Shown: piece after piece, positions 3,889 to 61,323 of the stretch | How the letters are laid out: every line of letters begins with the position of its first letter | Position numbering within the stretch: position 1 is the stretch's first letter | Source of the DNA: Methanomassiliicoccaceae archaeon | Lineage (GTDB): Archaea > Thermoplasmatota > Thermoplasmata > Methanomassiliicoccales > Methanomassiliicoccaceae | Assembly (NCBI GenBank): GCA_963741025.1 | Contig: CAVUGW010000027.1 | Coordinates: 3,589 to 67,588 of the forward strand | DNA: 64,000 bases | Direction: 5' to 3' | Notes under the pieces: generated by a model | What the model was told of the DNA's origin: nothing | The model's database searches: none | What the model saw: the letters and a program-made list of their open reading frames with translations, nothing else | Made by a program: the position numbers and the translations under genes

Positions 3889-4169
3889 ATGAGGTGGTCG
3901 ATGATAAGCCGGTCATCGGGTTGCGCCGACATTTCTTTACATGGTGGGTGTACATCGTAGGTTAGGATGGTCTGTGGTTGGCAGGTGTCCCGATAGAGAC
4001 CATCGCCCAGATACTCGGGCACGAGGACATCAGGACCACCATCGAGTACCTCGGTCTGAACATTGACGACCAGGACGATGCTATGAGAAAACTAGCACAA
4101 TTTCAGTCCTCTGTAAAATACAGGGTAGGGCAAAACACTGGATGTGAAAGTGGACAGAGCGGGATTTGA
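3831..4169 (+). pseudogene. Tyrosine recombinase (phage-integrase family), C-terminal remnant only
   Basis: The frame reads ..GLRRHFFTWWVYIVG*DGLWLAGVPIETIAQILGHEDIRTTIEYLG.., showing the R-H..LGH..Y catalytic pattern. There is an in-frame TAG at 3963-3965 and no N-terminal half. The 3' end overlaps the 3' end of tRNA-Ala. Confidence 0.6.
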
Positions 4170-4223
4170 ACCCGCGGCCTCGACATTGCGAATGTCGCGA
4201 TCTTCCAGCTGATCTATCTGCCC
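4151..4223 (-). tRNA. tRNA-Ala (anticodon CGC)
   Basis: Hand-folded cloverleaf: acceptor GGGCAGA/TCTGTCC with the G3:U70 Ala identity pair, D stem GATC/GATC, anticodon loop TTCGCAA, T loop TTCAAAT. No encoded CCA. Confidence 0.85.
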
Positions 4224-25429: not shown

Positions 25430-26578
25430 CTACCTTCCCAGTTCCTCATGCGCACTGGCGAGATGGCCTGCCGTCTGGGCCGAGAGGGTGGAGAGCTCCC
25501 CTGCTAGAACTATCGCGCCCACTATCTCCGCGAGCTTGATCGAACGACCTTCACCGAGGCAGTCGATCATCTTCAGAGCTTCTTGCTGGCATGGTAATCT
25601 CGTTCCACCGCCCACCGTTCCCACCTCGACACACGGAAGTCTCACCGAGATATAGAGGTCATCGTCGACCATTTCACAGGTCGTCGTTCCCATGCTTCCT
25701 TCGACCACCTGTGCAGGGTCCTGTCCTGTTGCTATGTATATTGCGGCCAGCATGTTCGCGACGTGGGCGTTCGAACCGAACGAGCACGAAAGGGAGCTGC
25801 CAACCTGACATTTTCTATAGCATGTTTCGAACACCGACCCGGGCGAGCAGTGCATTTTATCCTCCAACACTTTCTCCGGAACGCGAACATCGGCAAGGAC
25901 CATCTTTCCGCGGCCGAGGATGGCGTCGATCGCTGCGGGCTTTTTGTCGACGCAAACGTTTCCGGATACCGATATCAGGACCGCCCCTGTCTCTCTCTCG
26001 ATCAAATGGGCCAGCGTCTCTGAGGCGATCGTAGCCATGTTCATTCCCATCGCATCACCTGTTTCGTAGGCGAACCTTATGAAAAGGGACCTCCCCACGA
26101 TGAACGGTTGTGCGGCCTTTAGCCTGCCATGTCTTGTAGTTTTCTCTGTCTCCTTCTTCAGGAGGTCCAGGTTCTTTTCTACCCAGATCGAGACCTCGTT
26201 GCCGTGACCAACGTCCCTGACCCTGAACACCGGTGCCCTTGTCATATGGTCCTGTACGACGATCGATTTCGCACCGCCCGAGGCAGTTATCACGGAGCAA
26301 CCCCGGTTGACGCTCGCCAATAAAGCTCCTTCGGTCGTTGCCATGGGGACCAGGAACTCCCCCTGTGCGGACGCACCGTTAACTTTCAACGGACCGGCGA
26401 ACCCAAGAGGGACCTGGACACAGCCTATCATGTTCTCGATGTTCTTCTCTGCCATGATGGGATCGAAGGAGATGGAGGCAATGTTGTTCAATTTGGTCCC
26501 GGTATGCTCCTCGACCGCTTTCCTTCTGTCCTCAACATCCTCCTTTCTCCTTCCTCTGTTCTTTAGCCCCTGGTTCAT
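25430..26578 (-). CDS. hmgA: Hydroxymethylglutaryl-CoA reductase
   Basis: Motifs ENMIGCVQVPLG, TTEGALLASVNRG, DAMGMNM, GTVGGGT. Confidence 0.9.
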   Translation of the reverse strand: MNQGLKNRGRRKEDVEDRRKAVEEHTGTKLNNIASISFDPIMAEKNIENMIGCVQVPLGFAGPLKVNGASAQGEFLVPMATTEGALLASVNRGCSVITASGGAKSIVVQDHMTRAPVFRVRDVGHGNEVSIWVEKNLDLLKKETEKTTRHGRLKAAQPFIVGRSLFIRFAYETGDAMGMNMATIASETLAHLIERETGAVLISVSGNVCVDKKPAAIDAILGRGKMVLADVRVPEKVLEDKMHCSPGSVFETCYRKCQVGSSLSCSFGSNAHVANMLAAIYIATGQDPAQVVEGSMGTTTCEMVDDDLYISVRLPCVEVGTVGGGTRLPCQQEALKMIDCLGEGRSIKLAEIVGAIVLAGELSTLSAQTAGHLASAHEELGR

Positions 26579-27696: not shown

Positions 27697-28582
27697 TCAT
27701 ATCTTAGGGGCCTCTTTGATGTAGGTGTCCTCACCGATCTCCCGCAATGCGGTCTGGACCTCCTCCCTTGTGTTCATTACCACCGGCCCACCCCATGCTA
27801 CCGGTTCCTTAAGAGGGCTGCCATTGGCCAAAAGGAACCTTGCTCCCGATGGGGCAGACACCAAAAGAACCTCCTCCCCATCACCGAGGACCGCTGTCAT
27901 CCCCTCGCTCACCTCCCTGCTGTGTTCTTTTCCGATGGAAAGGACCCCTTCAAGCATATAGACAAAAGAGCTTGCCCCCTTCGAGATGGGGATGCGAAGT
28001 GATTTCTCCTGCATCATCGTGACGTCCGCCAAGCTCACGTCCATGGGCATATTCATTACGGGGCCAGAAAAACCGTTCATGACCCCGATGAGGACATCGA
28101 TGCTCACATTCTTAGTAGGTATGTACCTTTTGATTCTCCCCTGCCTTAACGTTCCGATATGCTGGCCTTGACATCTTTTTGGAGGCCGGCAGATTTATCC
28201 ATAGTTGTAGGCCCCATAGCCCTCCTTCCGAAGCTTGAGGCATCTCTTGGTGGATTATACCACTACCTGCGGACATCCACTGTAGGTCTCCAGTGGAGAT
28301 CAGGCCCCTGTTCCCCAGACTGTCCCCGTGCTCCATCATTCCTTTGATCATGTATGTTACGGTTTGGATCCCCCGATGGGGGTGGAGGGGGAACCCGGCC
28401 ATGTAATCAGCGGGATCGTTCGAATGAAAATCATCCAGTAATAGGAACGGGTCCAAAATATCTACCTCTTCTGGACCGAACGCCCTGTTTATCTTGACCC
28501 CGGCGCCTTCCATCGTTGGGCGACCAATGAGAACCTTACGTACCCTACTTTGCTGCTTGACTTCCTCCTTCATGCGATTCAA
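27697..28582 (-). CDS. Pirin-family bicupin protein; frame break near 28108-28114
   Basis: N-terminal cupin FPLHPHRGIQTVTYMIKG..HGDS in ORF 28112-28582. The C-terminal cupin lies in ORF 27697-28107. Confidence 0.85.
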
Positions 28583-28822: not shown

Positions 28823-28900
28823 GGGCCCATAGCTTAGCCTGGCTGGAGCGCCCGGCTGATAACCGGGAGGTCAAGAGTCCAAATCTCTTTGGGCCCACCA
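28823..28900 (+). tRNA. tRNA-Ile (anticodon GAT), CCA encoded; integration target
   Basis: Full hand fold: acceptor GGGCCCA/TGGGCCC, anticodon stem CCCGG/CCGGG, loop CTGATAA, T stem AAGAG/CTCTT, ACCA end. Confidence 0.9.
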
Positions 28901-28947
28901 TTCATGTCCAGCAGTTTCGAGGTTGCGAAGAACCTTCTGCGATCCAC

Positions 28948-29940
28948 TTATCGACTGATGAGCAGGTCCCGCCGGTACATTTTCACCGGCAAGGGGTTCT
29001 CTCTCATCGATGCTCTTACTGTTTCTAGATACGAAGCGTACTTCTCCTGCGCCCGCTCGAGCTTCTTGACCGTCCGGCCGAGATAGATCGCTCGTCTGCT
29101 TGAGGTCCGCATGCCCGAGCATGTCCGAGATGTCCTCGATCGGGACCTCCGCTTCGTCCATCATCATCGCTCCGGACCTCCGGAGCACATGGTCCGACAC
29201 ACACTCCTCCGGGACCCCTGCACGCTCTGCTACGGTCTTGAGCATCGCATCGATCGCGGTGTCCTGGTACGCGCCGAGCTTCCACCCGTACTGAGCGTAG
29301 ACGAGGAACTGCTGCGGCACCGGCTGCTCCGGCCTTCTCGATAAGGCGGCGGAGATGGTCCGCTCCCGGATCTCCTGATAGTACGACAGCTCCTGCAGCG
29401 TATCGATCGCCCAGGGGATGTTCCGCCACTTGCCGCCGGCCTGACCCTTGCCGAGCACGTTGATCAGGTTCAGCTGCACATCCTGCAGCGTGAGCCGCTT
29501 GACCTCGATCCTGCGCATCAGCAGCATGAGCTCGAGGTGCAGCAGGTCACTCTCGAGGCCCTGTGCCGCATCGAGCATCGCGATGCACTGCTCCGGAGCG
29601 AGCCACTTCACGTTCAGGCGCTGACCCTTCGGCCAGGGGATGTGCATCTTCTCCACCAGCGTTGTTGTCGTGATGCTTGAGATACTGACCGAAGATCGGC
29701 GATCTCCCGCCTGTTCTCCTTCGGCTCCAGGTGAGCGAGCGTCTCTTCCCTGAGATGGTTGATGCACCTCGCATCGACCTTCGACGGCGTCGCCGCATAT
29801 CCCTCGGCCTCTAGCTCCGAGATCATGCTCATCACGAGCCGCCTGTATTCTGCTCTCGTGTTCTGGTTGGTGCACGGTCTGAGCGCTTCCAACCATTCGT
29901 CCACTAGCGAGCTGAGGTACCTCGTTCGATTGTTGGGCAT
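28948..29940 (-). CDS. Tyrosine recombinase / integrase; at least 2 frame breaks
   Basis: N-terminal SAM-like domain in ORF 29614-29940 (MPNNRTRYLSSLVDEWLEAL..). The core domain lies in ORF 28871-30034 (..LRRSGAMMM..LGHADLKQTS). The tail AIYLGRTVKKLERAQEKY.. is in a third frame, with its stop at 28948. Confidence 0.8.
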
Positions 29941-30034
29941 CCTCAGTCCGCCCCTGTGATAGTGATGATAAAATTAAATCTTGCCGAATGAAAAGCGGCG
30001 TCGACGTTGAAGTGCATCCCATCCCCCCTGACAT

Positions 30035-30331
30035 TCAGCTGTCACTCTCCGGAACCCCGAAACCGACGTCCGTCAGGTCATGGCCTTCCGCCTCAACGGC
30101 GATCGCGGCGATCTCCCTGCGTATCAGCGGATCCTTGAGGAGCTCGATGAGCTCCGACGAGATCTTTGCACGGAGGCACTTGGAGCAGTAGGCCTCTACA
30201 GGACCGCCGCATGCTTCGCACCGATGCGAGGGTGGGAGCTCTCGGTCCTTGTTCCTCGATAGGTTCGAGGCGGTCGTGAACTCGCTCGCGGCCGACCGTC
30301 CGTTCAAGGTCTTCTGCTCGACCATGTTCAT
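30035..30331 (-). CDS. Small protein with CxxC..CxxC zinc-finger motif (98 aa)
   Basis: HRCEACGGPVEAYCSKC. The start ATG overlaps the upstream stop (ATGA at 30328-30331). Confidence 0.5.
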   Translation of the reverse strand: MNMVEQKTLNGRSAASEFTTASNLSRNKDRELPPSHRCEACGGPVEAYCSKCLRAKISSELIELLKDPLIRREIAAIAVEAEGHDLTDVGFGVPESDS

Positions 30332-30545
30332 CCGCTCCTGTAGAGCTTCAGAGACTCTTCGATCGCCTTCGAGTATCCCTTCATCGCTTCGGCGAGGTCC
30401 AGCTTCGCGTGGATCTCCGGAACACCACAGGCAAGGCAGTTCCGTGTTATCGAGCAGGTCTTCCACCTAGCTTGCATCGATAGCCCTTGCCCTCGTCCAG
30501 GACCATATACTCCTTGTCCATGCGGTCCAACATGTCGGCCATCAT
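30328..30545 (-). CDS. One or two very small ORFs (32 and 49 aa); frame relationship ambiguous
   Basis: MMADMLDRMDKEYMVLDEGKGYRC.. (30447-30545) and MQARWKTCSITRNCLACGVPE.. (30328-30477) overlap out of frame. Confidence 0.3.
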
Positions 30546-31253
30546 TGCTTGGCCCCCATCCCTTTGACCTTTCCATCCGTTTGGAGGAATATCTGGCACT
30601 TGAAGCATGCCTGATATGGCTTCCCGTCCTTCGTGGTCTTGTTGATGTCCTCGTTCCCACATACGCACCGGAGCCACTTCTTGTTCGTTGCGTCGTACTC
30701 ATCGCCGGCCTTTCGATCATTGTACACTTGTTCCTTGACGACCGATGCATTGACCGGCGGGACCTTCAACGACTGCTCGGAGGCCTTGGCGGCCGACGCC
30801 GCCCTCTTCGCCTCGAGCGCTGTCCTCTCCTCGGCGTTCCATTCTTCGACAGCGGTCTTTATCTCTGTCCTCGCCTGATCAAGGGCCGTGGCGATGTCCC
30901 TCTTCTGAGAAACCAACAACTCGGGTGTGAGCGGGTCCATTTCCAGCTGTACCTCTGGCGTCCAGGACCACAGGCCGTTGTCGCGTATGAAGCCCTTGAG
31001 CCCCACGCTGACGACCTTCATGCCGAGGCCCCCGCAGCGAGCTCGGCCGCCTTCGCGACGAGCTTCCACGTTCCCTCGTTCGGTACGTGCACGACCGTCC
31101 CGAGGACCTTGAGGTTCTCGGTGCCGCGCTCGTGCTCGCACACTTCATACGAATTCGGACACGTCCCCTCGCCTGACGCCCTTGTTCCACACCCTGAGCG
31201 TCATCGCTTTGCCGTCGACGATGACGTGGATTCTCCATCGAGGACATGCTCAA
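30542..31253 (-). CDS. Hypothetical protein with C-terminal zinc ribbon; 2-3 frame breaks in the N-terminal third
   Basis: Reconstructed reading ..RIHVIVDGKAMTLRVWNKG..EVCEHERGTENLKVLGTVVHVPNEGTWKLV..MKVVSVGLKGF.. ends in WLRCVCGNED..YQACFKCQIF. Confidence 0.4.
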
Positions 31254-31474
31254 TAACCCCCAGTTTGCGCAGGGAAGTTATCGAGCCACTTCCTGGCCTC
31301 TTTTGCCTCTTCGATCAGGACGTCCAACTGATGCCCTATCGAGTTGATCTGAGCTCCCCGCTCTAGGTTCAAGGTGATGTTGCCGGTCAGCGCATGACCT
31401 ACCTCACCCTCTAGCTTAAGGGTCAATACCTTTCCCTGGAGCTCATTGACGGCGAAGTCTCGCATCGAGCTCAC
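31250..31474 (-). CDS. Hypothetical small protein (74 aa)
   Basis: ORF with a GTG start overlapping the upstream stop (GTGA). Confidence 0.45.
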   Translation of the reverse strand: MSSMRDFAVNELQGKVLTLKLEGEVGHALTGNITLNLERGAQINSIGHQLDVLIEEAKEARKWLDNFPAQTGGY

Positions 31475-31732
31475 TCCCCCATGATGAACTTCTTATGCTC
31501 CTCGAGCGCGGCCCGGAGGTCCTTGACGCTATTATGAAGCTCATCTAGCTGCTTCTCCATCAGCTTCATGACGTCCAGATGAACCTCCTCGGTGTCAACA
31601 TCGTTCTCATCGTTATGCTCCGGTTCTAGGTCTCGATGTATCGCAGAAGCTGATGAGCTCAAGCGGTTCGCATTGAGCTCGAACCTGATAGGCGAGCTCC
31701 ATCGCCTTGTTATAGGTCTCAGGGGTCTCCAT
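31471..31732 (-). CDS. Hypothetical small acidic protein; probable frame break near 31640
   Basis: METPETYNKAMELAYQVRAQCEPLE (from ATG at 31730-31732) joins ORF 31471-31662 after one frame change. Confidence 0.4.
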
Positions 31733-31734
31733 GT

Positions 31735-31947
31735 TTAAGCCCCCTTCTTGGTCGAGTCCAATCTCTTCGCCATGACCGCCTCGTATCGTGCGAGGAGGTC
31801 CTGCGCGTCCTTGTCGCCGGCCTGGGCCGCCTTGCGGAGCTCGGGGATCCTCTTGAACTTGGAATGATCTATCCCGTGGTAGACCTTGCAGACGTCCTTG
31901 TGCGCCTCCCTGAACGCAGGGATGCTGAGCCTAGGGTCCTTGGCCAT
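31735..31947 (-). CDS. Hypothetical small basic protein (70 aa)
   Basis: ORF lying 2 nt from each neighbouring gene. Confidence 0.5.
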   Translation of the reverse strand: MAKDPRLSIPAFREAHKDVCKVYHGIDHSKFKRIPELRKAAQAGDKDAQDLLARYEAVMAKRLDSTKKGA

Positions 31948-31949
31948 CC

Positions 31950-32282
31950 TTAGGCCCCCTTGACCTTTGGGACCGCCATCAGTCCGCAGGCGTTCGCCTC
32001 GATCTTAGCTTCCTGCGCTTCCTTCAGCTTGACCTTCAGGTCCGCGAGGTCCTTGTAATAGATCTTCACGCGGCAATCCGCTGGACCTATCTCTATCGAG
32101 TTCTTCGCCTCGGTCTCGTCGGTCATCGATATGTTCACCGATACCTGAGCTCCTAGCGATCTCAGCGCGTCCACGGCCGTCGCGATCCCCGCCATCTTCT
32201 GCGATATGAAGACAGTGTGTTCCTCTGCCACCTTCTCGTCTATCTCCTTGCACATCTTGTCCAGTTCTGCGTTTCCTTCCAT
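31950..32282 (-). CDS. Hypothetical protein (110 aa), first gene of the small-gene operon
   Basis: ORF preceded by GGAGGAG 5 nt upstream of the ATG. Confidence 0.5.
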   Translation of the reverse strand: MEGNAELDKMCKEIDEKVAEEHTVFISQKMAGIATAVDALRSLGAQVSVNISMTDETEAKNSIEIGPADCRVKIYYKDLADLKVKLKEAQEAKIEANACGLMAVPKVKGA

Positions 32283-32406
32283 GTTACTCCTCCGTTACTA
32301 GGTGATAGTGAATGGAAACGGGAGCGTCCAGTAGGGATGTTGAAGACCTTTGTTCATTGGGCACTGGGTTTTCTGATAGGACGTCTCCCGGTTCGTTCAT
32401 CGTGAG

Positions 32407-32478
32407 AGCCACCAAAGGGGATCGAACCCTCGACCTCTTGTTTACGAAACAAGTGCTCTTCCTCTGAGCTAGGGTGGC
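32407..32478 (-). tRNA. tRNA-Thr (anticodon CGT), no encoded CCA
   Basis: D stem GCTC/GAGC, anticodon stem CTTGT/ACAAG, loop TTCGTAA, T loop TTCGATC. The acceptor has one C7:U66 mismatch. AAATAT lies about 21-26 nt upstream. Confidence 0.8.
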
Positions 32479-32856
32479 GAGGCGGGCGGGCTCGGCGGAT
32501 ATTTCTGGAGGAGAAACAAGGTGTACGAATGGCAGATCCTCGCAAGGGGATCCATTACCGCCGCCGTCCCGCCCATTATGTTCTCTTCCATGTTGTTCGT
32601 CTCCATAGGTGCCGGGAGAACGCTTCGTTCGGCCCAAGAACATAAGTGCGTCCCCCCTGGCATGAGTTCTGAGCTTTCGCTCACAGATGTCGTTCTCTGG
32701 GCCTTCCGATCCGAGGACCGGATGTTGTTCTTTCTGCTTTCGGCTCTCCCGAATGCAGAGTTGGAATAGATCATCTATATATTAATGGTTTCGGTAATAT
32801 CAATTGCCGAAGGCCGAATACTAAATTATATAATAATATAAAAATTTAGAAGGGGT

Positions 32857-33152
32857 ATGCCTTCTGCAAATTACAAGTCCGAGATCCTAGAGAACACATT
32901 AGCTATTGGAGTTATGCTGGCACTTGAAAAAAGAAAGGAACCAGTAATGAGCGGGGTTCTACCTCAATATGTGGGAAAGAAGAGTGCAGGGACGACCATC
33001 GAAAGGGTCAGTGAGTTCGAAGAGGCAGGTCTGGTAAGAAAGGTTCAGGAAGAAAAGAAGCCGTTCCGCAAGTTCGTCGAGCTCACCGATCGCGGACATG
33101 TCGTGTCGCCGAGCATCTGCGGGCGATCGAGGACATTCTTGAGGAGAGATGA
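32857..33152 (+). CDS. Winged-helix DNA-binding protein (~97 aa); frame break near 33105
   Basis: ..EFEEAGLVRKVQEEKKPFRKFVELTDRGHVV then, after a 1-nt shift, AEHLRAIEDILEER*. The track fuses it to the next gene. Confidence 0.5.
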
Positions 33153-33174
33153 ACGGAAATGTCGAGAAAAAATC

Positions 33175-33537
33175 ATGACCGTTCCCCCCGAAGTTCTTCA
33201 AGCCGCCCCTCCAGCGTGGCCACTTGAGCTTCCGGACCCTGGAAATGACGTGGCCAAATTTCTCGGATGGGTAAAGAGACGAGGTCTTTACCATCCTTTA
33301 GATCTGTGCGAGGTTAAATGGAAACAGATGGGGCATAGGGAGGACCTGAACGATGTGCTCGACCCATATTCTCCCGGCCTTGTGCGGATCGGGAGGGAAC
33401 AACATGGCACGCTCTCTGTAAAAGTCATCGATAGGGCATGGGCTGACAATTGGGCATCGCACTACGGTGTGGAGACGTTCCACCATGGACAGCAGGCCAG
33501 GTCGGGGAAGGCGACAAAGAACCTGATAAAAAAATAG
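33175..33537 (+). CDS. Hypothetical protein (120 aa)
   Basis: Begins MTVPPEVLQAAPP.. 23 nt after the reconstructed stop of the wHTH gene. Confidence 0.4.
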   Translation: MTVPPEVLQAAPPAWPLELPDPGNDVAKFLGWVKRRGLYHPLDLCEVKWKQMGHREDLNDVLDPYSPGLVRIGREQHGTLSVKVIDRAWADNWASHYGVETFHHGQQARSGKATKNLIKK

Positions 33538-33605
33538 AGTAATGTAACAAATATGTAAAGTTATATATGCCCTCGGTCCTGTAACCATGTTCGAGGAATT
33601 GAGAT

Positions 33606-34400
33606 ATGAGCAAGAATAAGGAGTCCAAGATCTTTGGGCCCGCCCCGTTCGGTGGGCTGGTTCCGGATACTGTCAAGGGCCGTGTGCTCGCGGAGATAGT
33701 GGCCGACCCGTTCTCTGAGTACACGCCGTCATCGATGGCCGATCTGACCATGCACAATTCTAACAGGGTCAGCGAAGCGCTACGGGAATATGAGGTCCTC
33801 GGCCTATTAAAGAACATGTCCCGGGACAAGCGACGCCCTGTCTTCCGTCCGGTCGTGTCCAAACGGCTCAACGCCCTGATGTTCCTATCCCTGGCGGTCA
33901 ACGATGACGTTCTGGGGGAGAACTGCATGGACCGCGCCGTCGTCGATTACATCGAAAGAATAGGTTACCAGGTGTACTCTTCCGCCCAGACCATGGCGGT
34001 GACCCGGTTGACAAGGCCTGACGGGTCGGATCGGTTCATCTGTCAGCGGTGCGGCCGAAGCCCCACAAAAGGTGGCGGAGGCGATATCATGAGCGACGAA
34101 AAGGTGAACGCGCCCCCCATCGAAGCAATACTGGAGAACTATAAGTACGATCTAAGCAAGCTGAAGGTCAAGATCGATGGGGAACACTATTCAAACATGG
34201 CGTACATGCTCGTGTCCGGAAGGGACGTCTATGTGGACTTTCTCAAGATGCCGGGAGTGATCATCGATGGCGTCCCGGTCGCCTCTGGCGTCAGGGTGTA
34301 CATGCCGATCGCCGCAGCACAGCGTCTTGCGGACGCATTGATCACCACGATAAAGCAGGCCGAGAAAGCTGGAGGGATTGAACCCATCCATACGCCGTAA
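33606..34400 (+). CDS. wHTH domain fused to a DUF3467-like C-terminal domain
   Basis: N-terminal SMADLTMHNSNRVSEALREYEVLGLLK. C-terminal HYSNMAYMLVSGRDVYVDFLKMPG..VRVYMPIAAAQRLADALITTIKQAEK resembles DUF3467. Confidence 0.5.
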   Translation: MSKNKESKIFGPAPFGGLVPDTVKGRVLAEIVADPFSEYTPSSMADLTMHNSNRVSEALREYEVLGLLKNMSRDKRRPVFRPVVSKRLNALMFLSLAVNDDVLGENCMDRAVVDYIERIGYQVYSSAQTMAVTRLTRPDGSDRFICQRCGRSPTKGGGGDIMSDEKVNAPPIEAILENYKYDLSKLKVKIDGEHYSNMAYMLVSGRDVYVDFLKMPGVIIDGVPVASGVRVYMPIAAAQRLADALITTIKQAEKAGGIEPIHTP

Positions 34401-34402
34401 TC

Positions 34403-34487
34403 ATGGAAAGATCATTGAGCTCACAGATCGCGGACATCGTGTCCCCGAGCATTTGAAAGAGATCGAGAAGATACTCAACGAGGTCTA
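34403..34487 (+). pseudogene. Orphan 3' fragment of a wHTH gene (KIIELTDRGHRVPEHLKEIEKILNEV*)
   Basis: Nucleotide-level similarity to 33077-33152 (GAGCTCAC.GATCGCGGACAT..CGTGTC.CCGAGCAT). No upstream coding part. Confidence 0.4.
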
Positions 34488-34536
34488 GACCTCTCCCGCA
34501 CATCCGTCGGGATAACTATCAATATCGGTCGGCGAC

Positions 34537-34707
34537 ATGGTATCGTCGATGACCATGACAGAAGGCAAGCAGTTCACATGTCCAGTGTGCGGTTTCTCCG
34601 TGATGACCCCGACCGGCGAAGAAGAGATCATGAAGCATATCCAGATGCATCATGATGACTACCATTCCGACATGAAGATGACACGGAACAGTTCCCGCGA
34701 GCCCTAA
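34537..34707 (+). CDS. Small metal-binding-type protein (56 aa, below the track cutoff)
   Basis: Own translation: MVSSMTMTEGKQFTCPVCGFSVMTPTGEEEIMKHIQMHHDDYHSDMKMTRNSSREP (CxxC plus His-rich). Confidence 0.4.
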   Translation: MVSSMTMTEGKQFTCPVCGFSVMTPTGEEEIMKHIQMHHDDYHSDMKMTRNSSREP

Positions 34708-34821
34708 ATGATCGTCCAGAGCCATCGGCCCTTCGATCTTGACGATGCAAAGGAAGAGGGGTCGGAACAAAATACCAGGAAAAGATGAGAAAATGAAGAG
34801 TTTCGCAAGGGGTTTGGTAGG

Positions 34822-36023
34822 TTGCAGGGGACATGGGTTACCAAAGGTATCGTTCTTTTTCGAGGCTTCGGAAAGAGCTTGGTGAGAAGGATGAACGTCT
34901 CGCTCCAATCATCCAGACCTACATCTCGTCTTCTGTACATAGACAACCTTCGATGGTCCCTCATCCTACTGGTTTTGTTCGTCCATTCCAGTATCGTGTA
35001 CGGGGCGTTGGGTTCATGGCCCTACCATGATCCGATGGTCGGCGATCCTATGTTCGCCACGATCCTAACGATCATTGACGCCTTGATCCAATCGTTCTTC
35101 ATGGGCCTGCTGTTCCTCCTCGGAGGCTACTTCGCTCCTTTTTCCCTCGACCGTAAGGGTCCGATCCGCTTCATCAAGGACCGATTCGTTCGTCTGGGCA
35201 TTCCAACGTTGATCTATGTCTTCATCCTCGCCCCTATGATAATTTATCCTCTAGATTTCTCCTATAAGGAGACCTTTATGACCTTCTTCAGTAGCTACTT
35301 CACAACCCCCGCCCACTGGGACACCGGTCCGCTGTGGTTCGCCCTGGCCTTGTTGGTCTTCTCTGTTCTCTATGCGCTTGTTCCCAAGAATAGGATCACG
35401 AGCCACGAGGTCAGTTGACCAACCGACTGCTGGTTGCTATGATCCTGCTGATAGGTACGGCCACTTTCTTGGTGCGGATTCCCTTCCCGATAGGGACCAA
35501 TGTATTCAACTTCCAGCTCTGCTGGTTCCCTCAGTACATCGTCCTGTTCATCATTGGTGTGCTCGCCTATCGTGGCGATTGGCTTTCGAAGCTCGATGTG
35601 AAGATGGGAATGAAATGGCTACTTGTGTCGGTCGTCTCTTTCCCTCTGGTCTTCCTGCCTGCCGCGGTCGTTGGAGGAGCGATCAGTGGTAACCTCGATG
35701 CCTTCTTGGGAGGCGTGACCTGGCAGTCCGCGTTCTATGCTTTATGGGAGGAGCTGTTCGGCATTGGGATGTGCGTATTCTTATTGGTCCGGTTCCGTGA
35801 GAAGAGGAACGTTCAGAGCCGCTGGGACAAGGTCATGGCCGAAAACTCCTTCGGAATATATCTCTTCCATGCCCCTGTACTTGTGGCCATTGCCTTCCTT
35901 ATGTCCGCTCTGATAATTCCAACCTTTTTTAAGTTCGCTATCCTGCTTTCCGCAGGTTTGGTGATGACCCTCATCTTGTCGATCGCCCTACACCGTGTTC
36001 CGGTGCTAAGAAGTGTGATCTAA
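34822..36023 (+). CDS. Acyltransferase family 3 (OafA-like) membrane protein; frame break near 35410
   Basis: RLLYIDNLRWSLILLVLFVHS N-terminal signature and ~10 TM segments across ORFs 34822-35418 and 35415-36023. Confidence 0.75.
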
Positions 36024-36526
36024 TGAACTTTCTCAGCTTACAACATACAAGGTCGTCTTACGCTCGCGAGAGATCATCCAGGACGGAATCCTGTTGATCA
36101 GGGCGAATATAAGGGCGTATCCTCATGCCCCCATCTTCCAAGGGTCGGGCGGATTGCAGAACGTTCCTGGACCATACCTTGAAAAGAGGCGAGATGGAAC
36201 GATCCGTGCTACCTCACTATCTGCCAAGAGATCGGGAACATGAACATAGGAGAGATCGGTATAGGTAGATTAGGTGGATACTTCAGGGGCACGATAGATC
36301 GTTTCGGAGAACGATTTGGCATCGAAACCCCGTCACGCAGGAATAATATGAGATTCTGCATCATAGGAAAGGGTTGCCCGTTTAGAGCATCAAAATATTC
36401 TTATGAATGAACCTGAAACATCGCGAGAGGTCCCGCCTTCAAATATCTTATGAAAAGTATTTTCCGTTATTTCATTATCTGCTATAGGTAAAACACCAAG
36501 GTAACAAAGGTCGTTCCAAACCACTA

Positions 36527-37244
36527 TTGTTCAAAGAAAGGAGGAAGGGGATGGACAAAGAGGTCACCACGGTCAGTGATATCAAGGAGATAGCTCAAAA
36601 GGACCTAACCTTCCAGAGGTTTGTTTTCAGAAAAGCATGGGGAACTTATTTTGCTATATGGGCCACCTTGATCGCCTACTCTGTCCTCCTGCCCGATCCC
36701 TCACCCCTCGCACCCTTGATAGGAGATCTGGATCTTGTGGTTTATTTTCTGATCACGGTAGCTGTGGTCCTTATAGTGATCGAAGCGACTGTACGAATAA
36801 CCAGAACATGGGACCGTACATTGATCTTACGGGGGATCCTCAACAATGATGGCAATCAATCAAAGAGATCGACATATGAACGAATCAAGATTTTTTTTGG
36901 TTTGGGTGCTCATAGCATATATCACAAGGCTCCTGGCCGGGACATATCTTCCATCTTATGCCGATCCGATATTCTATGTCTGCCTGATACCTATCGCGGC
37001 ACTTCTCATTCATTTTTTGAGACACGCTTTCCCCACAGGCTGGCCTATCGAAACGATCATCGCAATGTCCTTCCTTTCTGGTAGCATTGTTCTGAGCCTC
37101 ATCGTTTCGATCCCGGGAACCCCGTTCTCGGACAATGTTTTGACTACATACTTCTGGGTCATGACGATCATCGTTCTTTACTTGGCCTCGTTATATGCCT
37201 TATTACATGCTCCAGAGGAGCTGGAGGCGATCACCGAGGGATGA
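36527..37244 (+). CDS. Membrane protein, unknown function; frame break between 36850 and 37080
   Basis: ORFs 36527-37084 and 36846-37244 overlap in different frames. Both are hydrophobic. Confidence 0.4.
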
Positions 37245-37576
37245 TGGAAAAGACCCCCTCCTCTGAAGTAGAGGCGTTGGATGCCCTTCGCGAACAGTTC
37301 AGCGATTCGTCCCTCAAATCCTCGACCAGGGTTCTGATATTGATTTCTCTAGCTTTGAACAGGAAGATGAGCTTCGTGAACCTGATGAGCCTCACTGGGA
37401 TGGGCAAGGGAAGTTTGAGCAATCATCTTGAGAAATTAGAATCATCGGAGCTCATCATGACCAAAACGAAGGTCACTTTTAGCGGGACCAGGACGGTCGT
37501 GGAGATAACAGAAAAGGGTCTGAGCGCTTACAACGATCTACTCCAAACGCTCAACACGTTCCAGAAAAAGGGATGA
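37241..37576 (+). CDS. Winged-helix transcriptional regulator
   Basis: SSTRVLILISLALNRKMSFVNLMSLTGMGKGSLSNHLEKLESSELI. The start overlaps the upstream stop. Confidence 0.6.
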   Translation: MMEKTPSSEVEALDALREQFSDSSLKSSTRVLILISLALNRKMSFVNLMSLTGMGKGSLSNHLEKLESSELIMTKTKVTFSGTRTVVEITEKGLSAYNDLLQTLNTFQKKG

Positions 37577-37947
37577 CCTGAAGTTCTCATTTCTATCCGA
37601 TATCGCTTCTAATATCGTTTATCTTCGGCATGATCCATTCATCATCTTTCAATGCTCTGGTATGATCAAAGGTCGTTCAAATTTTGAACGCGTCTTTGCT
37701 TGTATATACGCTCTTGAATAATGAGGTGTTGAGGGTGACGGACACGCTCCGGGACCCTCCTAGCGACCTTCCCGATCGATCGGACCCTCGCTCGGGACGT
37801 TCGGGTAAAAAGAGGGTTGGAACAAAGAAAAACAAAGGGTGAGAGCATGAGGAAATACGCAATACGAAATAAGGTCAGCCTCTTTGGACCCATCGTTGGT
37901 ATGAAGAGCAGACCTGGTAGCGCAAGAGGCCTCTGGGAGGTGAGGCT

Positions 37948-38875
37948 TTGAGCACGGCTATAATGGTGGATGGTTTGTCGAAGGTCTATGGTGGCATTCG
38001 GGCCGTGGACGATATCAGTTTCCGGGTGGATGCGGGGCAGGTCTTTTCGCTCCTGGGCCACAATGGGGCCGGGAAGACGACAACCGTGGAGATCCTCGAA
38101 GGGCTGAGGAGACCCACTTCCGGTGGGGCGAGCATCTTCGGCGTGGACGTGACCAACGGATACGACAAGCTGAGGAAAAAGGTCGGTATCCTGCCTCAGG
38201 ACTTCGAGCCATTCGAGCGGCTGACACCGTTGGAGGCGTTGGAGTATTGGTCCTCGCTTTTCGATGACGACCTGAACAAAGAGCGGACCATCGGATCTTT
38301 TGGCAAGCGTTGACCTTGTCCATCGACAGGGCATATTGTCCAAGAACCTCTCGGGTGGGGAGAAGAGGAAGCTTGGCATCGCTATGGCCCTGGTCAACCG
38401 ACCAGAGCTGTTGTTCTTGGACGAGCCTACAACCGGTCTCGATTCCAAGGCCCGCAGGGACCTTTGGGACCTGATCGGTGACCTCAAGAAAGCCGGGACG
38501 ACCATCTTCCTGACCACACACTATCTGGACGAGGCCGAGGTGCTCTCCGACCACATCGCCATCATGAACAAGGGTAAGATCATTGCCGATGGCAGCCCTG
38601 TGGAGATAATCAAGAAGCACGGTCACCGACCGGTCGTTACCCTGATGGGGGCCGGTCGGCAAGGTCTCGAGGAAATGCATAAGCAGAACGTTGAAGCAAC
38701 GCTTAGGAACGATGACGTGGTCATCTCGGTCTCTGATCCATCCAAAATAGGCCATTGGATGGCACGTCTGTTCGATGCCGGGGTCAACGTTCAGGACATC
38801 TCCATCAAAAAGGACACTCTGGAGGATGTCTTCCTACAAATGATCGCTCCCCAAGAAAAGGGGGCGGCCCGATGA
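37948..38875 (+). CDS. ABC transporter ATP-binding protein; frame break near 38300
   Basis: Walker A GHNGAGKTT (ORF 37948-38313), signature LSGGEKRKL and Walker B LLFLDEPTTGLD (ORF 38300-38875). Confidence 0.9.
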
Positions 38876-39978
38876 GCCGGTTGAAGGGCGACATGAGGGC
38901 CACCGCTCGAATGTATATGCGCTCGAGGGCGGCAATGTTCTTCACCTTCTTGTTCCCGGTGCTGCTCTAATCCTGCTGTTCGGAGCGATATTCTCTCAGG
39001 GCAATGGCCCGATTACAGTTCCAGTACAGAACCTCGACGGCGGTCAGGCATCGGTGGAGTTCATGGAAGCTCTGAACAACACTGGGGTGATCCAGGTCCA
39101 GGTCGTCCCTGCGAACGAGAACTTGAGCAGCTACATTGACAATAACTCCCTGAGCATCGCTATGCAGATACCAGCTAACTTCACATCCGACCTCGATAAG
39201 CGAATGACCGACCCACAGGCGCCGATGGCCTCGGCCACCCTGTTCGGCGATCCTTCGAAGTCGGTCTACCAACAAGCGGTGGGAGCGAGCAACGGCGCGG
39301 TCGAAGCAATGAACTTCCATCTTGCCAACGCCACTCCGGCCATATCGGTGAAGGCACAGACCATTCCAACCGTCAAAGGTTCCAGCTTTATGGACTTCTT
39401 CCTGCCAGGGGTCGTGGGCATGACAGTGATGACGGTTTGCCTGTTCGGAATGACCAACATCTGCTCCAACTACCGCAGCAAGGGGTACTTCAAGCTACTT
39501 TCGACGACGACCATCAGGAAGTACGAGTGGATGCTGAGCAAGTTCGTTGTCTACTCTGTCATCTTGACGCTCTCGCTGGTGGTATCGTACTTTGTGGGAT
39601 TGGAGCTCTTCGGCATGACCTCTTCCCTTACGGTCCTGACCTTTGCCTTCATCTTGGCCGGGGCGTTCCTGTTCGTTGCCCTCGGCATGTTCGTGGGCAC
39701 GGCAATCAAGGACGAGGAGAGCGGAGTGACCATCGCCAACGCCATCGGCTTTCCGATGATGTTCCTGTCTGGGACCTTCTTCCCCGTCCAGAGCTTTCCT
39801 GCGTTCCTGCAGACAGTCTCGGCGTTCCTGCCGTTGACCTATTTGAACAACGGGTTAAGGGACACGATCGATCTACGGGAACAACACATCGGCGCTGTTC
39901 AATCTGGTGGTCGTCCTTGTGGCGGGAGCAATCCTGACGGTGGCAGCGTCCAGACTGATGTCGTGGAAGGGGGAGTAG
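38872..39978 (+). CDS. ABC-2 type transporter permease; frame breaks near 38965 and 39870
   Basis: Start ATGA-coupled to the ATPase stop. MSRLKGDMRATARMYMRSRAAMFFTFLFPVLL, then ORF 39054-40055. The true tail YGNNTSALFNLVVVLVAGAILTVAASRLMSWKGE* lies in a shifted frame. Confidence 0.8.
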
Positions 39979-39982
39979 GACA

Positions 39983-40349
39983 ATGGGTCGGTCTCGATCG
40001 TTCTTCGGTACGATCATGGCGGTCTTGTTGGTCCTCTTGCTGGCCTCCGTCGTGATCAACATGACGGTAGGCTGGTCGAACGCATGGGGAATAACGGACC
40101 TCACGGACGAGGTCTTCGCTCTAATCCTTGTCCTGTTCCTCATCGCCATCATCGGGCGATTGACATATGGTATCGTTTACGGCCTTTTGCCGCACCACCA
40201 TCATGGGCGGCGGTACTGGGACGAACCATGGGGAAGAGAGGCCGAGGAAGTATTGGATCGGAGGTATGCCCGTGGTGAGATACGCCAGGGAGCAATATCG
40301 GCAGATGAAGGAGGATGTTCAGGGAGATGGTCCGGGCCCCCGACCTTAG
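39983..40349 (+). CDS. Small membrane protein with SHOCT-like C-terminal domain; frame break near 40285
   Basis: Two TM segments, then EVLDRRYARGEI / REQYRQMKEDVQ split over two frames. Confidence 0.5.
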
Positions 40350-40718
40350 GCCGACCCGGCCCTGCTAAATCTTTTTTTTAAAATTATAACATGATGGAAA
40401 ACGCATAACGATCGACTTGATGTAAAATGATTGGGATTCTGACCTTCGATAAGAATGAACAAGAATTATCGTCACAAATTGTAAAGATACTGCAATCTTT
40501 CCTTCTAAGCATGGATGTCAAGGTTATTTTGCCTATGATGTTAAAGGTGTTAAAGGATGAACAGATCAAATAAAAAAATAAAAGATTACTGTTGAGGCAA
40601 CAGTAAGCCAGTACTTTTTCTTAACTCATCATTACTTTACTGTTCAGGTAATTCTTATTTAAATATAGTCAAAGGGATGTATCATATTTCTAGGGGTTTT
40701 CTTTCTCATTTTAGACCA

Positions 40719-40965
40719 CTATCGGTCCTGCTGCTCTAACATCATCTTCAGTCTCTCTGTCGTCCGTTCCATTTCCTTGATGGTCATCGGCTTGACCAGG
40801 TAACAGAAAGCACCCTGCTCTTTTGCCTTTTCAGCATCGCTTGGGTCTGTCCAAACCGGGTCATGATAATTAATTGAATACCGAGATGGTCGGTCTGGAC
40901 TGCTGCTTGTGGTTTAATTTCGGGCAGCCCACCACCATCCAGAGCATCATTAAATAAATTCTATA
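40719..40965 (-). pseudogene. Response-regulator receiver domain remnant
   Basis: ..IQLIIMT.. and, in a shifted frame, DPSDAEKAKEQGAFCYLVKPMTIKEMERTTERL (the A..GA..YL.KP end of a REC domain). No N-terminal Asp pocket. Confidence 0.45.
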
Positions 40966-40999
40966 TTTATAAAACCGCTCGAAACGGGTAGGCCAGTAA

Positions 41000-41609
41000 C
41001 CGGCGCCTCCTTCTCCCTCATATGCAAGCTGCTCCTATAAGCAGCGCGAACGGCTCGATGTATCTAGCTATCTGCAGCGGACCCGCATCCACAACGGATC
41101 AGAACAAAATGCGTTAATTAGCCCGGCTGCTCAATTCTTTGGCGCTTAAGGTCATTTCTGCCACAGTACACGATGTTTGGTCGATTGGCTTTGCGCGTTG
41201 GCCCTCATAAACGCTGAAAAGCACTTCACTGGGCTGTAGGTATTGAAACGCGACCACTATCCTGGCCTTTTGAATCTTCTTCGCAAGTCCTCCGAGCCCG
41301 ATGAGGCGTGGGCCACGACCAGTTCGGCGTCGTTATCATTCATCGGGAGGCTACAGCCCTGATGACACATCTTTCCTGCTATAGGTCGCCTGCCCGATTC
41401 AGGACATCGTCCACTCTCGACGAGTGAAGATGGCTAACAATATCGCATCTGCGTCTCGTACAGCTTCACGAGGTGCGCCTGGTGCTTCGCCTTGCCTCCA
41501 GCGTCCCTTGCGAGCTTCTTTAGCTTCTCTCGTCTACGGCGTAGCTGAATACCACTTCATGTCCAGCTCTCGCGAAGAGCGTTCCGAAGCTTGCCACCAA
41601 TCGGTTCAT
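41000..41609 (-). pseudogene. Possible NAD(P)-binding (F420-dependent NADP reductase-like) oxidoreductase remnant
   Basis: Only NRLVASFGTLFARAGHEVVFSY (Rossmann beta-alpha-beta) and scattered downstream similarity. Many stops. Confidence 0.3.
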
Positions 41610-41788
41610 TCTGAGCCCAAAGTGCCAATTCGCATGTTGCTCACGATTTTTCACCTCAATAACGCAGAATTCATGCCAAGGAATTCGCTTGTCTGTATAA
41701 TGTTCAGCGTCGTCAATATTCACATCCGGGAGCTCTCAACATTGAGCGCCTAGTTGTCGCCACAACGAATAATTCTATAATGAATCAA

Positions 41789-42850
41789 TCATGGATGGAG
41801 CATATACGCGTTCTTCAACAACGCAGTTTCATCGGACGTCAAGCTCGCACCGAGAGCAGCAGCCACTGCATCTTCGACGTGGAGATGCTTTTTTCGTAGC
41901 ACTCAACAATAGGCGATGTCATTGTTCTCGTTCTGCAGCAACGCACAGGCGAGTGCAATCTGCAGCCATCGGTATGCTTCGCCTGCTCGCCACCTCCATC
42001 AGTCGGCTTCGACTTACTTCTTCGGTCCATCTCGGCTGTTGGACCGTAAAGAGCTATGTAAACTGTCATTTTATCTTCGAACCAGGTGTTAGTGTTTCCC
42101 ATTCGCGCGCCAATCTCCCTGCTGCAAGCGGGGCCGAAGGAACCACTGTCGTACTCCCCTTCCTCCTTGCAGAGCGGCAGCATCTCCCTCTCCTCCTCGC
42201 GGTACATGAGATTCTGATTGATCCTGCATCGCCACAAACTTGGTCCATCCGTTTTTCTCAGCCACATGATTTGCCTTCGCAAACTGCCATGCGTACATGG
42301 AAGAAGCACCGATTAACTGGCCTTCCCAGCCTTTACAACGTCATGCAACGCCTCCATAGTTTCTTCGATCGGGGTATTGTAATCCCAGCGATGAATAAGA
42401 ATAGAGATCCACATAATCTGTACCAAGGTCTTTTAAGGCTTTTATCAATCTCATTCATGATCGCTTTTCGGGAAAGCCCGGAACCATTGCGGCCCTTAGA
42501 TGCATTCGGAAATGATACCTTTGTCGCAAGGACAATTTCGTTACGGTTTGCATAATCCTTTCAGATGCCCGTCCAAGAATTTCTTCGCTATTTCCAGGCT
42601 GAATATCCATTTGACGGTATCAAAGAAATTAATACCTAATTCAAGAGCCTTTTTAATAATAGGAAGAGCGCGCTCCTCATTGAGTGCAAAAGGAAAGAAT
42701 CCCGGAGTATAAGCTGAATCTTGATTGGGTATGGGGCTCCTTACCAAGTGCCGATGGAAATAATCCCCTATCAGGTATGCCAAAGGCCAAACAGCCAAGA
42801 CAAATCCGAGACACATCCATCCCGGTGTTTCCGAGTTTAGCATATTCCAT
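41789..42850 (-). pseudogene. Aldo/keto reductase, heavily frameshifted (at least 10 breaks)
   Basis: Reconstructed by frame-hopping: [132 protein letters not shown].. Confidence 0.7.
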
Positions 42851-43436
42851 TAAACGAGCCTCCTTGAGGTAATCGTACGATTTTTAACGGTCATGGAATT
42901 TGGAATCGGCTTGATAATATAACATTTCCAACGATCCCGGCGATTACTGTTGGTAAGCGTCGGAAAAGAATGAAAAGGGTTTGCCCAGCAAGGCACTCAA
43001 GGACGGAATGACCGTCATTGAAATCTGGAATAGATGTCTGGCTACCCTCTGATTAAAGTCCGGGCGAATTTGAATCCTGAATCAAGGCCATCATGCCCAT
43101 CTTATACGATAATGCTTCATGATAAGATGTATATTTAGAACGAGCCAGTATATGGAAAAACATCCACCATCATATCATCACAAAGAAAAGAAAGATGTAA
43201 GGTAAGCTCAAAGCATACGCTTTGTTTCTTTGAATGGGGTCGTTCCTCTTAGAGCCTTAATGTTCGTAGTGGAAGCAATTTATTGGCTCTGCCGTGAGCG
43301 GGGCTATTTCTGAGGGAGCCAGACAGTTTCGCGGCAGAAATCCGCTCTATCCACGAATTAGTTTAGAATCAACACGATCTAACCATAATTGCGCCGCCAA
43401 AAATAATCCTCATCCAGTAAAGAACGATACAAAGAT

Positions 43437-43466
43437 ATAGGTTAGATAGGTTAGATAGGTTAGATA
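43437..43466. repeat. Short tandem repeat, 9-nt unit (GTTAGATAG) x3
   Basis: ATAGGTTAGATAGGTTAGATAGGTTAGATA read directly. Confidence 0.8.
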
Positions 43467-43577
43467 AAAAGAGGGAAAGCGTTTATCGTTTTCTTCTCCA
43501 AAGCTACAAAAATCTTTCCGAAAAATTACTTTGAGTAGGGCATTTTCGAGCTTATCCGGTCATTTCGCTCATCGAAT

Positions 43578-43594
43578 TCTCTTTGGGCCCACCA
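43578..43594 (+). repeat. Direct repeat of the tRNA-Ile 3' end (putative attR)
   Basis: 17/17 identity to 28884-28900, and 4 of the next 6 upstream bases also match. Confidence 0.6.
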
Positions 43595-43908
43595 GACGCT
43601 ACTGGCTCGCCTACCAAAATTTCCTTTTGAGGAAAAATAAGGGAATTTTGATACTGGGCGAGCTTTCTCATTCCTTCGCTTTTATGATCCAGAATTCAAC
43701 ATACTCCATTAGCATCCCGTTCTGACACGGTCTTGACCTAACCTTGATCTAGTATCGAGCGTCTAGGATAGATCGATTCCGTATGACCTATTTCCAACCC
43801 CGCTGCCTTTTGCTCTACGAACTGCAACAACTGGCGGATCATCTTATTTGGGGCAACGATGTTCTATGACCCAAAACATCCGTCACCGTTCATTACCCCT
43901 CGAAAAAG

Positions 43909-60746: not shown

Positions 60747-61323
60747 CAGTTGTCCGATTCTCCTTTGAAGAGCGGTCGTTTGAACGTCAACCTTCGAACT
60801 GCCAACAATACGACCTCCCTATTTATTATTACCGCATTAGTACTATCTACTGAGGTTACTAATTATCGTCCACATTCAGGATGATAGGTACATATCGGTC
60901 CAAACGCTCCGAACCTCGTGGTCGATCGATCGTGCATCAGACCATTTTCAAGCGACGACCGAACGGATCATCTAGCAGATCCACCCGTAGCGGGGCCATC
61001 CAGTTCGCAAAGATTAAATATGCAACTTCGGATGCCAACCACACTTCGTCTGGATGTCGAAGCTGGAACTCAGAACACCTTGTTAGGTGAGGTTACCGTA
61101 CAAACATAGGCTGCTGCCCAGAAACATCGAGAGAAGCCAATGGGTAAAGAAGACACTGCCGGATTAAGGCTTTGTCCGAAGCAGCTGAGTGACCGGTCCC
61201 CGGCCATTCACTCTACGTTTCTACGGTGCCGAAACTGCACTAGGAGAGTGTTCGATCTACGACCTTATCAACACGGTCGCTCCCACACATTCCATCTGCT
61301 CAAAAGGTGCGGGTTTCTAGGCA

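Follow-up and report, generated by a model that had tools for sequence, protein, structure and literature searches.

A tRNA-Ile(GAT) integration hot spot and its composite 14.7-kb island in a Methanomassiliicoccaceae archaeon

How does DNA come to lie beyond a tRNA gene at which the gene order of an archaeal family breaks off, and of what is it made? The question is raised by a 64-kb stretch of Methanomassiliicoccaceae archaeon DNA (the window; coordinates without a prefix are positions in it), in which the end of tRNA-Ile(GAT) recurs 14.7 kb downstream of the gene. A preliminary description had taken the DNA in between for a composite island integrated in tRNA-Ile. The window was compared with about 160 related loci from related genomes and metagenome contigs (L-numbers). 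The duplication of the attachment (att) site, the layout of an integrase gene beside it, and the mosaic interior were upheld, while the kinase gene said to flank the island on the right was not found as described. Very probably, a tyrosine integrase inserted the segment 28901-43594 into the 3' end of tRNA-Ile(GAT) by site-specific recombination.

The repeated tRNA end and the integrases beside it

The gene for tRNA-Ile(GAT), the integration target, is intact at 28823-28900 on the forward (+) strand, with its CCA end encoded (ARAGORN; Rfam RF00005, 62.8 bits), and its 3' half is identical to that of the tRNA-Ile of relatives. Its terminal 17-mer, TCTCTTTGGGCCCACCA, was found exactly twice in the window, both times on the + strand: at 28884-28900, the core of the left site (attL), and at 43578-43594, the core of the right site (attR). 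No third copy was detected in the window with up to two mismatches allowed, nor were inverted att copies. Repeat search and alignment extended the similarity between the two cores leftward to 21 of 23 positions (28878-28900 and 43572-43594), with its right limit falling exactly at the CCA terminus of the tRNA. Direct repeats of the 3' part of the target tRNA (17/17 exact) are therewith found at both ends of the segment, as the preliminary description had stated, and an intact tRNA stands regenerated at the left junction.

A gene for a tyrosine recombinase/integrase of a roughly 329-aa family occupies 28948-29940 on the reverse (-) strand, in four frame segments recognized from reading frames, Pfam, PHROG, and homologues. 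It is convergent with tRNA-Ile, and its stop codon (28948-28950) leaves 47 nt to the left repeat; the attL-integrase arrangement proposed earlier was thereby recovered, with a spacing of 47 instead of 48 nt, and with the addition that the frame needs three single-base repairs, which had been missed. Aligned as DNA with its counterpart in L081 (74.5% identical), the gene shows these single-base insertions near 29700, 29660, and 29090. Following their removal, the protein of 329-331 aa aligned end to end with ten database proteins at 49-71% identity, and the catalytic columns R..HxxR..H..Y (Arg, His-x-x-Arg, His, Tyr) were invariant. The integrase matched PF00589 (3e-9) and a PHROG integrase (1.6e-17), and full-length homologues were retrieved at 64-71% identity; weak matches were obtained between the repaired protein and the XerA/C/D models and structures.

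At the right border, a normal multi-PAS kinase gene had been thought to resume immediately beyond the repeat. What stands there instead, at 43579-43692 (-), is the 3' end of another tyrosine integrase gene, its final 38 codons, whose frame continues across the core; it is of the L030/L007/L009 type, as identified by tblastn, DNA alignment, and translation (LDHKSEGMRKLAQYQNSLIFPQKEILVGEPVASGGPKE). With tblastn, this remnant was 59% identical over 37 aa to the integrase of L030 and 39% identical to those of L007 and L009, and its flanks also aligned as DNA. The kinase starts approximately 215 nt further on and is split into three open reading frames (ORFs). Nothing further of the remnant's gene was found in the window, nor any right-hand att site of the older element up to position 64000. 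The stretch 43579-43692 is what an older element left behind after integrating at this tRNA-Ile. As the stump reads into the core, the distal 17-mer is both attR of the 14.7 kb and the old attL of that element, and the stump provides independent evidence for the 17-mer as a recombination site.

Could the distal 17-mer nonetheless be a chance match, or the fragment of a decayed second tRNA-Ile gene? Two of the related loci, L004 and L027, do hold two tRNA-Ile copies 1.2-2.2 kb apart. Against this, only about 7e-6 chance occurrences are expected for a given 17-mer, and two matches to it were obtained in none of 100 dinucleotide shuffles. Moreover, no tRNA-like sequence was found to the left of the distal copy beyond the 23-nt match, and hence a second degraded tRNA-Ile gene, the circumstance named beforehand as fatal to an integration, is excluded. 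The distal core also runs into the 3' end of an integrase gene, in just the manner seen where the site is occupied in L007, L009, and L030. A coincidence or a decayed tRNA at 43578 is thus scarcely credible.

The steps by which a tyrosine integrase would have delivered the segment follow from established knowledge of integration by such recombinases. The attP of a circular element would hold the last 17-23 nt of tRNA-Ile, and the element's own XerC/D-like enzyme would recombine it with the tRNA gene, with crossover within this 17-23-nt core. The tRNA would be rebuilt at attL with the convergent integrase gene 47 nt off, and the displaced original tRNA end would become attR, 14.7 kb downstream. 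The empty attB would read ...GAGTCCAAATCTCTTTGGGCCCACCA joined to GACGCTACTGGCTCGCC, and the attP of an excised circle ...GCTCATCGAATTCTCTTTGGGCCCACCA joined to TTCATGTCCAGCAGTTTCG; excision through attL and attR would be possible if the integrase is intact. The 14.7-kb DNA would have landed beside what was left of an older element that had another integrase, making tRNA-Ile a hot spot used repeatedly, and everything between the two cores would have arrived by integration at the core after that older element.

Located 112-141 nt inside the right end, at 43437-43466 (+), are 3.3 perfect copies of a 9-nt tandem repeat, ATAGGTTAG, detected by repeat search. Speculatively, they may be arm-type binding sites of an integrase; a counterpart was sought on the left arm and none was found, and the assignment was not retained.

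Elsewhere in the window, a second stretch of integrase C-terminus (...LGHEDIRTTIEYLGLNIDDQDDAMRKLAQFQ...) is encoded at 3972-4163 (+), 46-59% identical to integrases of the L007/L009/L030 type. This stretch and tRNA-Ala(CGC) at 4150-4223 (-) are convergent and overlap at the 3' end of the tRNA; by its sequence, the stretch would be either another att-integrase relic or a frameshifted integrase. No repeat of the tRNA-Ala 3' end was found within the window.

Occupancy of the tRNA-Ile site in relatives

Scans anchored on HMG-CoA reductase, encoded at 25430-26578 (-) in the window, covered 185,579 species genomes together with JGI and ENA metagenome contigs. The best matches to the enzyme, at 72-74% identity, came from metagenome-assembled genomes (MAGs) of Methanomassiliicoccaceae. 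Across relatives, the order tRNA-Ser, pheT, dehydrogenase, HMG-CoA reductase, tRNA-Ile is kept, and synteny stops at tRNA-Ile; to the right of this tRNA, no ORF inside the island or beyond it is syntenic in the approximately 160 loci. The integrase and a winged-helix gene are the only island genes that were found downstream of tRNA-Ile in relatives.

Integrases of the window's family stand immediately beyond this tRNA-Ile, in convergent orientation, in L003 (50% identity), L006 (45%), L169 (59%), and L081-L085 (about 69%), and remnants are seen in L002, L004, and L005. In L007, L009, L017, and L030, the site is taken by a second, distantly related integrase type (about 33% identity) with an ORF that crosses the att core and enters the tRNA. 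Within the loci fetched through HMG-CoA reductase, to which this count is limited, an integrase or remnant lies no more than 2.5 kb from tRNA-Ile in nine (L002-L007, L009, L017, L030). With 20 tRNA-Ile copies in 19 loci of more distant relatives, the same distance is free of integrases, the island genes are absent, and the downstream genes differ from those of the window's right flank; L004 and L027 hold two tRNA-Ile copies each. With an integrase or remnant at tRNA-Ile(GAT) in about one third of relatives, the site is a hot spot of repeated integration whose occupancy varies among them.

The tRNA-Ile(GAT) genes of L004 (6826-6903 and 9073-9150) and of L027 (6938-7013 and 8152-8229, 1.2 kb apart) are all complete, which suggests that some elements of the family carry a whole tRNA copy as attP; the two full copies of L004 lie 2.2 kb apart around its integrase remnant. 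In L001, the end of this tRNA recurs exactly, over 26 nt and in direct orientation, 5.66 kb away; genes for an acyltransferase and a PAS kinase, but none for an integrase, stand between the copies, and past the distal one comes an integrase stump. A search for attR in L169, L081, L003, L006, and L009 was negative within the sequence available for each; with L169, the host genes for enolase and RNase III begin approximately 4-5 kb from the tRNA.

A link to a virus is provided by L167 (ENA scaffold_542) and L168, whose integrase is 71% identical to that of the window. It closes a region with upstream genes for a tail tube (PF18906), a tape-measure-like protein, and tail-associated proteins, and the region holds a succession of small ORFs, including a zinc-ribbon gene, and a divergent winged-helix gene as in the window. 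These likenesses in integrase, small ORFs, and winged-helix gene point to a module common to a head-tailed provirus. A fragment of the tRNA-Ile 3' end, CAAATCTCTTCGGGCCCACTA, is present on the integrase strand at 10990-11070 of L167 and 4600-4680 of L168 with no tRNA gene adjacent. The integrase of these two loci stands at the attR end, a geometry opposite to that of the window despite the 71% identity.

Layers and genes of the island

The interior of the island is layered. The G+C content is 0.58-0.61 at 28.9-32.3 kb, 0.46-0.57 in the middle, and 0.41-0.48 at 40.4-43.6 kb, with 0.50-0.52 in the flanks, while the G+C content of third codon positions (GC3) is 0.78 in the GC-rich module, 0.70 in the middle, and 0.64 in the host, with a sharp break near 32.3 kb. 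The strongest tetranucleotide outliers of the 64 kb are the segments 28.5-31.5 kb and 40.5-43.5 kb. Composition is therefore host-like in the middle of the island and atypical for the host over its left 3.4 kb and right 3 kb. The composite interior of the preliminary description, with its GC-rich module, host-like cargo of acyltransferase and ABC-2 exporter genes, and AT-rich tail, is accordingly real by both the G+C and the tetranucleotide profiles.

The GC-rich module (30035-32282, -) comprises some seven to eight small ORFs on the strand of the integrase gene. The first (30035-30325) encodes a CxxC zinc ribbon and the second (30542-31021) a protein of 159 aa with a C-terminal zinc ribbon, both of the form CxxC...CxxC, and these are followed by ORFs at 31250-31474, 31471-31662, 31735-31947, and 31950-32282. 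None of the small ORFs could be placed in a Pfam or PHROG family, and the sole match to the 159-aa protein among 5.8 billion proteins was itself; its zinc-ribbon tail has a match in L167/L168, in the gene that takes the corresponding place upstream of the integrase, and ORF 31735-31947 matches a gene within the integrase module of L169. The small ORFs are candidates for excision or regulatory factors, and the winged-helix proteins of the island are probably the switch.

Between this module and a divergent winged-helix gene, in the intergenic gap, lies a gene for tRNA-Thr(CGT) at 32406-32478 (-; ARAGORN, Rfam 58.5 bits), which went unmentioned in the preliminary description. No tRNA-Thr was found near the tRNA-Ile locus of any relative. 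That it might be the true target of the GC-rich module was considered and dismissed, its 3' end being repeated nowhere and the integrase family being consistently tied to tRNA-Ile. Codon compensation was likewise rejected, as the frequency of ACG is equal in module and host (17.9 vs. 18.2 per 1000 codons).

The winged-helix regulator, here termed wHTH1 (32857-33149, +), was recognized by its homologues and has one apparent frameshift near 33095; following repair, it gave weak matches to the PadR and HxlR families of Pfam. Its homologues are divergent from the integrase gene in L081, L006 (two copies), L167, and L169, making it a conserved partner of the integrase family. A listed 226-aa ORF is an artefact in which wHTH1 is joined via the frameshift to a separate small gene. 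The latter (33247-33537) opens a three-part cassette at 33247-34400 (+) whose other two parts, at 33606-34400, are a winged-helix domain and DUF3467 (PF11950), either fused or side by side; all three are contiguous in L170, L171, and L173. Immediately beyond, at 34408-34485 (+), the C-terminal remnant of a second wHTH1-type gene was recognized by its match to module-type winged-helix genes.

Further to the right are genes for an Acyltransferase-3 (OpgC/MdoC-like) membrane protein (34822-36023, +; one frameshift, with PF01757 on both halves, and NCBIfam) and for two small membrane proteins and an ArsR-type winged-helix regulator (36527-37576, +, the regulator at 37241-37576), the last assigned by domain searches and NCBIfam. 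A DrrA/DrrB-type ABC-2 exporter follows at 37948-40055 (+; Pfam, NCBIfam), with its ATPase at 37948-38875 (one frameshift) and its permease, disturbed at the C-terminal end, at 39054-40055. The AT-rich tail begins with a stretch (40382-41500) in which no ORF exceeds about 80 codons in any frame and continues into an aldo-keto-reductase pseudogene (41800-42883, -), which requires at least four frame changes to be read; its fragments, stitched over the N-terminal half, match PF00248 (2.6e-19). A peptide of 31-34 aa encoded in the tail (40729-40838, -) is 56-63% identical to one at 6463-6756 of L001, between the kinase and tRNA-Ile.

As judged from these sequences, the island is a mosaic: an integrase/zinc-ribbon/winged-helix module common to tRNA-Ile-linked elements, including the head-tailed provirus, with the remainder as cargo, namely tRNA-Thr(CGT), the winged-helix/DUF3467 cassette, the acyltransferase, the ArsR-controlled ABC-2 exporter, and decayed genes. 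Among the ORFs of 28.9-43.6 kb, searches of Pfam and PHROG returned no capsid, portal, terminase, or tail genes, and matches in Pfam, PHROG, and NCBIfam included no replication initiator, relaxase, or VirB4/VirD4-type transfer ATPase. With genes for virions, replication, and conjugation lacking, the element is best regarded as a cryptic integrative element or a proviral remnant and not a complete virus or plasmid. With PADLOC, a search for defence genes gave only generic similarities to ABC-ATPases and winged-helix proteins, which does not suggest a defence island.

A rival account is serial accretion. By this account, which is a tentative but real possibility, the recent element would extend from 28901 to approximately 33150-34485 (about 4.3-5.6 kb), and the rest, up to 43577, would be one or more older, integrase-less islands resembling cis-mobilizable elements (CIMEs), the intermediate att site having been lost or mutated. 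The break near 32.3 kb and the three levels of GC3 favor it, as does the small size of related integrase modules, illustrated by the host genes that begin so close to the tRNA in L169. The integrase-less, repeat-bounded insert of 5.7 kb in L001, with its acyltransferase and kinase cargo and then an integrase stump, would be a precedent, and the stump to the right of the distal core attests to at least two integrations at this tRNA. Accretion does, however, lack a credible internal att. The best candidate (33620-33644) agrees at 22 of about 26 positions and shares its starting point within the tRNA with the 26-nt repeat of L001, yet its score of 29 was reached by 1.3% of shuffles and it is probably due to chance. 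It was rejected because it lies in a variable winged-helix N-terminus within the cassette that is contiguous in three unrelated loci, and because a match of score 27 also occurs outside the island; the module-type winged-helix remnant at 34408-34485, moreover, lies beyond it. A second candidate (37881-37894) was not significant.

The host-like tetranucleotide profile of 33-39 kb bears on a further alternative, that of an old, fixed event in which approximately 34.5-43.6 kb would be normal chromosomal DNA that a rearrangement, such as recombination between two integrated elements or their att sites, moved next to the tRNA. A kinase homologous to that of the right flank lies in opposite orientation inside the repeat-bounded segment of L001, which hints at rearrangements near the site, and the integrase stump at tRNA-Ala would be an att-bearing relic in the same region. 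But the att copies of the island are direct and their identity ends exactly at the tRNA 3' end, as a simple integration predicts; inverted copies are lacking; and none of the interior genes is syntenic with relatives. Rearrangement is accordingly considered unlikely.

A more elaborate view is equally doubtful. The integrase/zinc-ribbon/winged-helix module might define a family of small tRNA-Ile elements devoid of virion genes (4.3-5.6 kb in the window, about 5 kb in L169), satellites of tailed viruses such as L167 that would be mobilised or packaged in trans and would ferry tRNA-Thr and exporters; integrase-less segments (L001, possibly 34.5-43.6 kb of the window) would be moved by a neighbour's integrase.

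Several observations weigh against delivery of the whole segment into tRNA-Ile by its own integrase. The region at 33-39 kb, host-like in tetranucleotides, carries ordinary accessory genes of housekeeping type, and an intermediate att copy that would document stepwise accretion was not found in the island. No conspecific is present in the collections searched, the closest relatives having HMG-CoA reductases of 73-74% identity, and so neither an empty site nor an excised circle was seen. The integrase family has no relative in IMG/VR contigs, as searched with the integrase alone and with an 11-sequence profile, and the best match among GenBank phages was 26% identical over 36% of the protein; the comparison with viral databases that had been recommended thus gave the integrase no viral relative there. 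Finally, the integrase frame is broken three times, and the element may be immobile, unless the breaks are assembly errors of the kind seen in pheT.

The last point applies to the contig as a whole. Split genes across the window include those for pirin (27697-28582), three PAS kinases, an amino-acid permease (46922-48308), and a GvpD-like ATPase, and pheT (22535-24187), which encodes the beta subunit of phenylalanyl-tRNA synthetase, has two frameshifts, near 23100 and 22640; kinase genes are split at 1714-3254 and 6453-9145, and frames are broken at 13960-15520. The source assembly is probably indel-prone, and perhaps a long-read MAG. With two frameshifts in the essential pheT, and with split kinase, pirin, and permease genes outside the island, pseudogene calls from single frameshifts are unsafe anywhere in the contig. 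The integrase cannot, for this reason, be called dead, as true inactivation and sequencing error are not separable on the present sequence. Single broken genes were likewise rejected as proof of island decay, the same breaks occurring outside it. Of the gene-decayed, AT-rich tail described earlier, the AT-richness and the aldo-keto-reductase pseudogene persist, whereas decay read from single frameshifts is confounded by pheT; apparent decay is retained only for the aldo-keto-reductase gene, with its frame changes crowded into 1.1 kb, and for the 1.1 kb devoid of ORFs.

Outside the island, a full-length M-box (magnesium) riboswitch was identified at 61072-61254 (+; RF00380, 123.9 bits against a gathering score of 44), directly upstream of an ORF for an Nramp-family transporter (61324-62670, +; PF01566, 1.5e-77). 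The pairing of M-box with Nramp-related (NrmT) genes has been described for bacteria (PMC4072509). Its occurrence in a Methanomassiliicoccaceae archaeon is unusual for archaea and suggests that the gene, with its regulating riboswitch, came in by horizontal transfer.

Significance and comparison with known systems

The mechanism proposed for the island is textbook, and its surprise value is low; proviruses flanked by tRNA-derived direct repeats are treated as routine in archaea (PMC10919331). The mobile elements of the Methanomassiliicoccales are poorly catalogued, and the locus adds modestly to a sparsely described mobilome. Together with its relatives, it defines a tRNA-Ile(GAT) hot spot beside HMG-CoA reductase, an integrase family absent from IMG/VR, and an integration and regulation module common to a tailed provirus and small cryptic elements. 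As markers they are useful for detecting proviruses and islands in this order, whose members are methyl-reducing methanogens of guts, digesters, and wetlands; the integrase/att pair might also yield a genetic tool.

With archaeal integration of the SSV type, attP lies inside the integrase gene, which is split on integration. The likeness here extends to an archaeal tRNA target and to the ORFs of the L030/L007/L009 type that run through the core, the L030 type only by its last few codons. The integrase gene of the window, in contrast, remains undivided and stops 47 nt short of the core, and no N-terminal integrase fragment was found at the distal end. The Caudoviricetes provirus L167 shares the integrase family (71%), the order of small ORFs with a zinc ribbon, the divergent winged-helix gene, and a tRNA-Ile att fragment. 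The window differs from it in the lack of tail, capsid, portal, and terminase genes, and the att fragment of L167 is on the integrase strand with no adjacent tRNA.

Arrays of integrative and conjugative elements (ICEs) and CIMEs in Streptococcus thermophilus arise by tandem accretion and include integrase-less relics flanked by att sites. Similarly, one att site has been reused at this tRNA-Ile, with an integrase stump beyond the distal repeat of the window and an integrase-less, repeat-bounded segment in L001; unlike those arrays, the window has an archaeal host, no conjugation genes, and no preserved internal att.

The nearest counterparts are the tRNA-targeting islands whose integrase stays intact on integration, of the pNOB8 type in archaea and P4-like in bacteria. 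Common to these and to the window are direct repeats of the tRNA 3' end, a tRNA regenerated at attL, a convergent adjacent integrase, mosaic cargo, and atypical composition. What sets the window apart is its uncultured Methanomassiliicoccaceae host, tRNA-Thr as cargo, an interrupted integrase frame, and an integrase family without relatives in IMG/VR, whose identity to proteins of GenBank phages is only about 26% over one third of its length. The island is a further example of a well-known kind, in which a tyrosine integrase inserts DNA at a tRNA gene and one att site is used serially.

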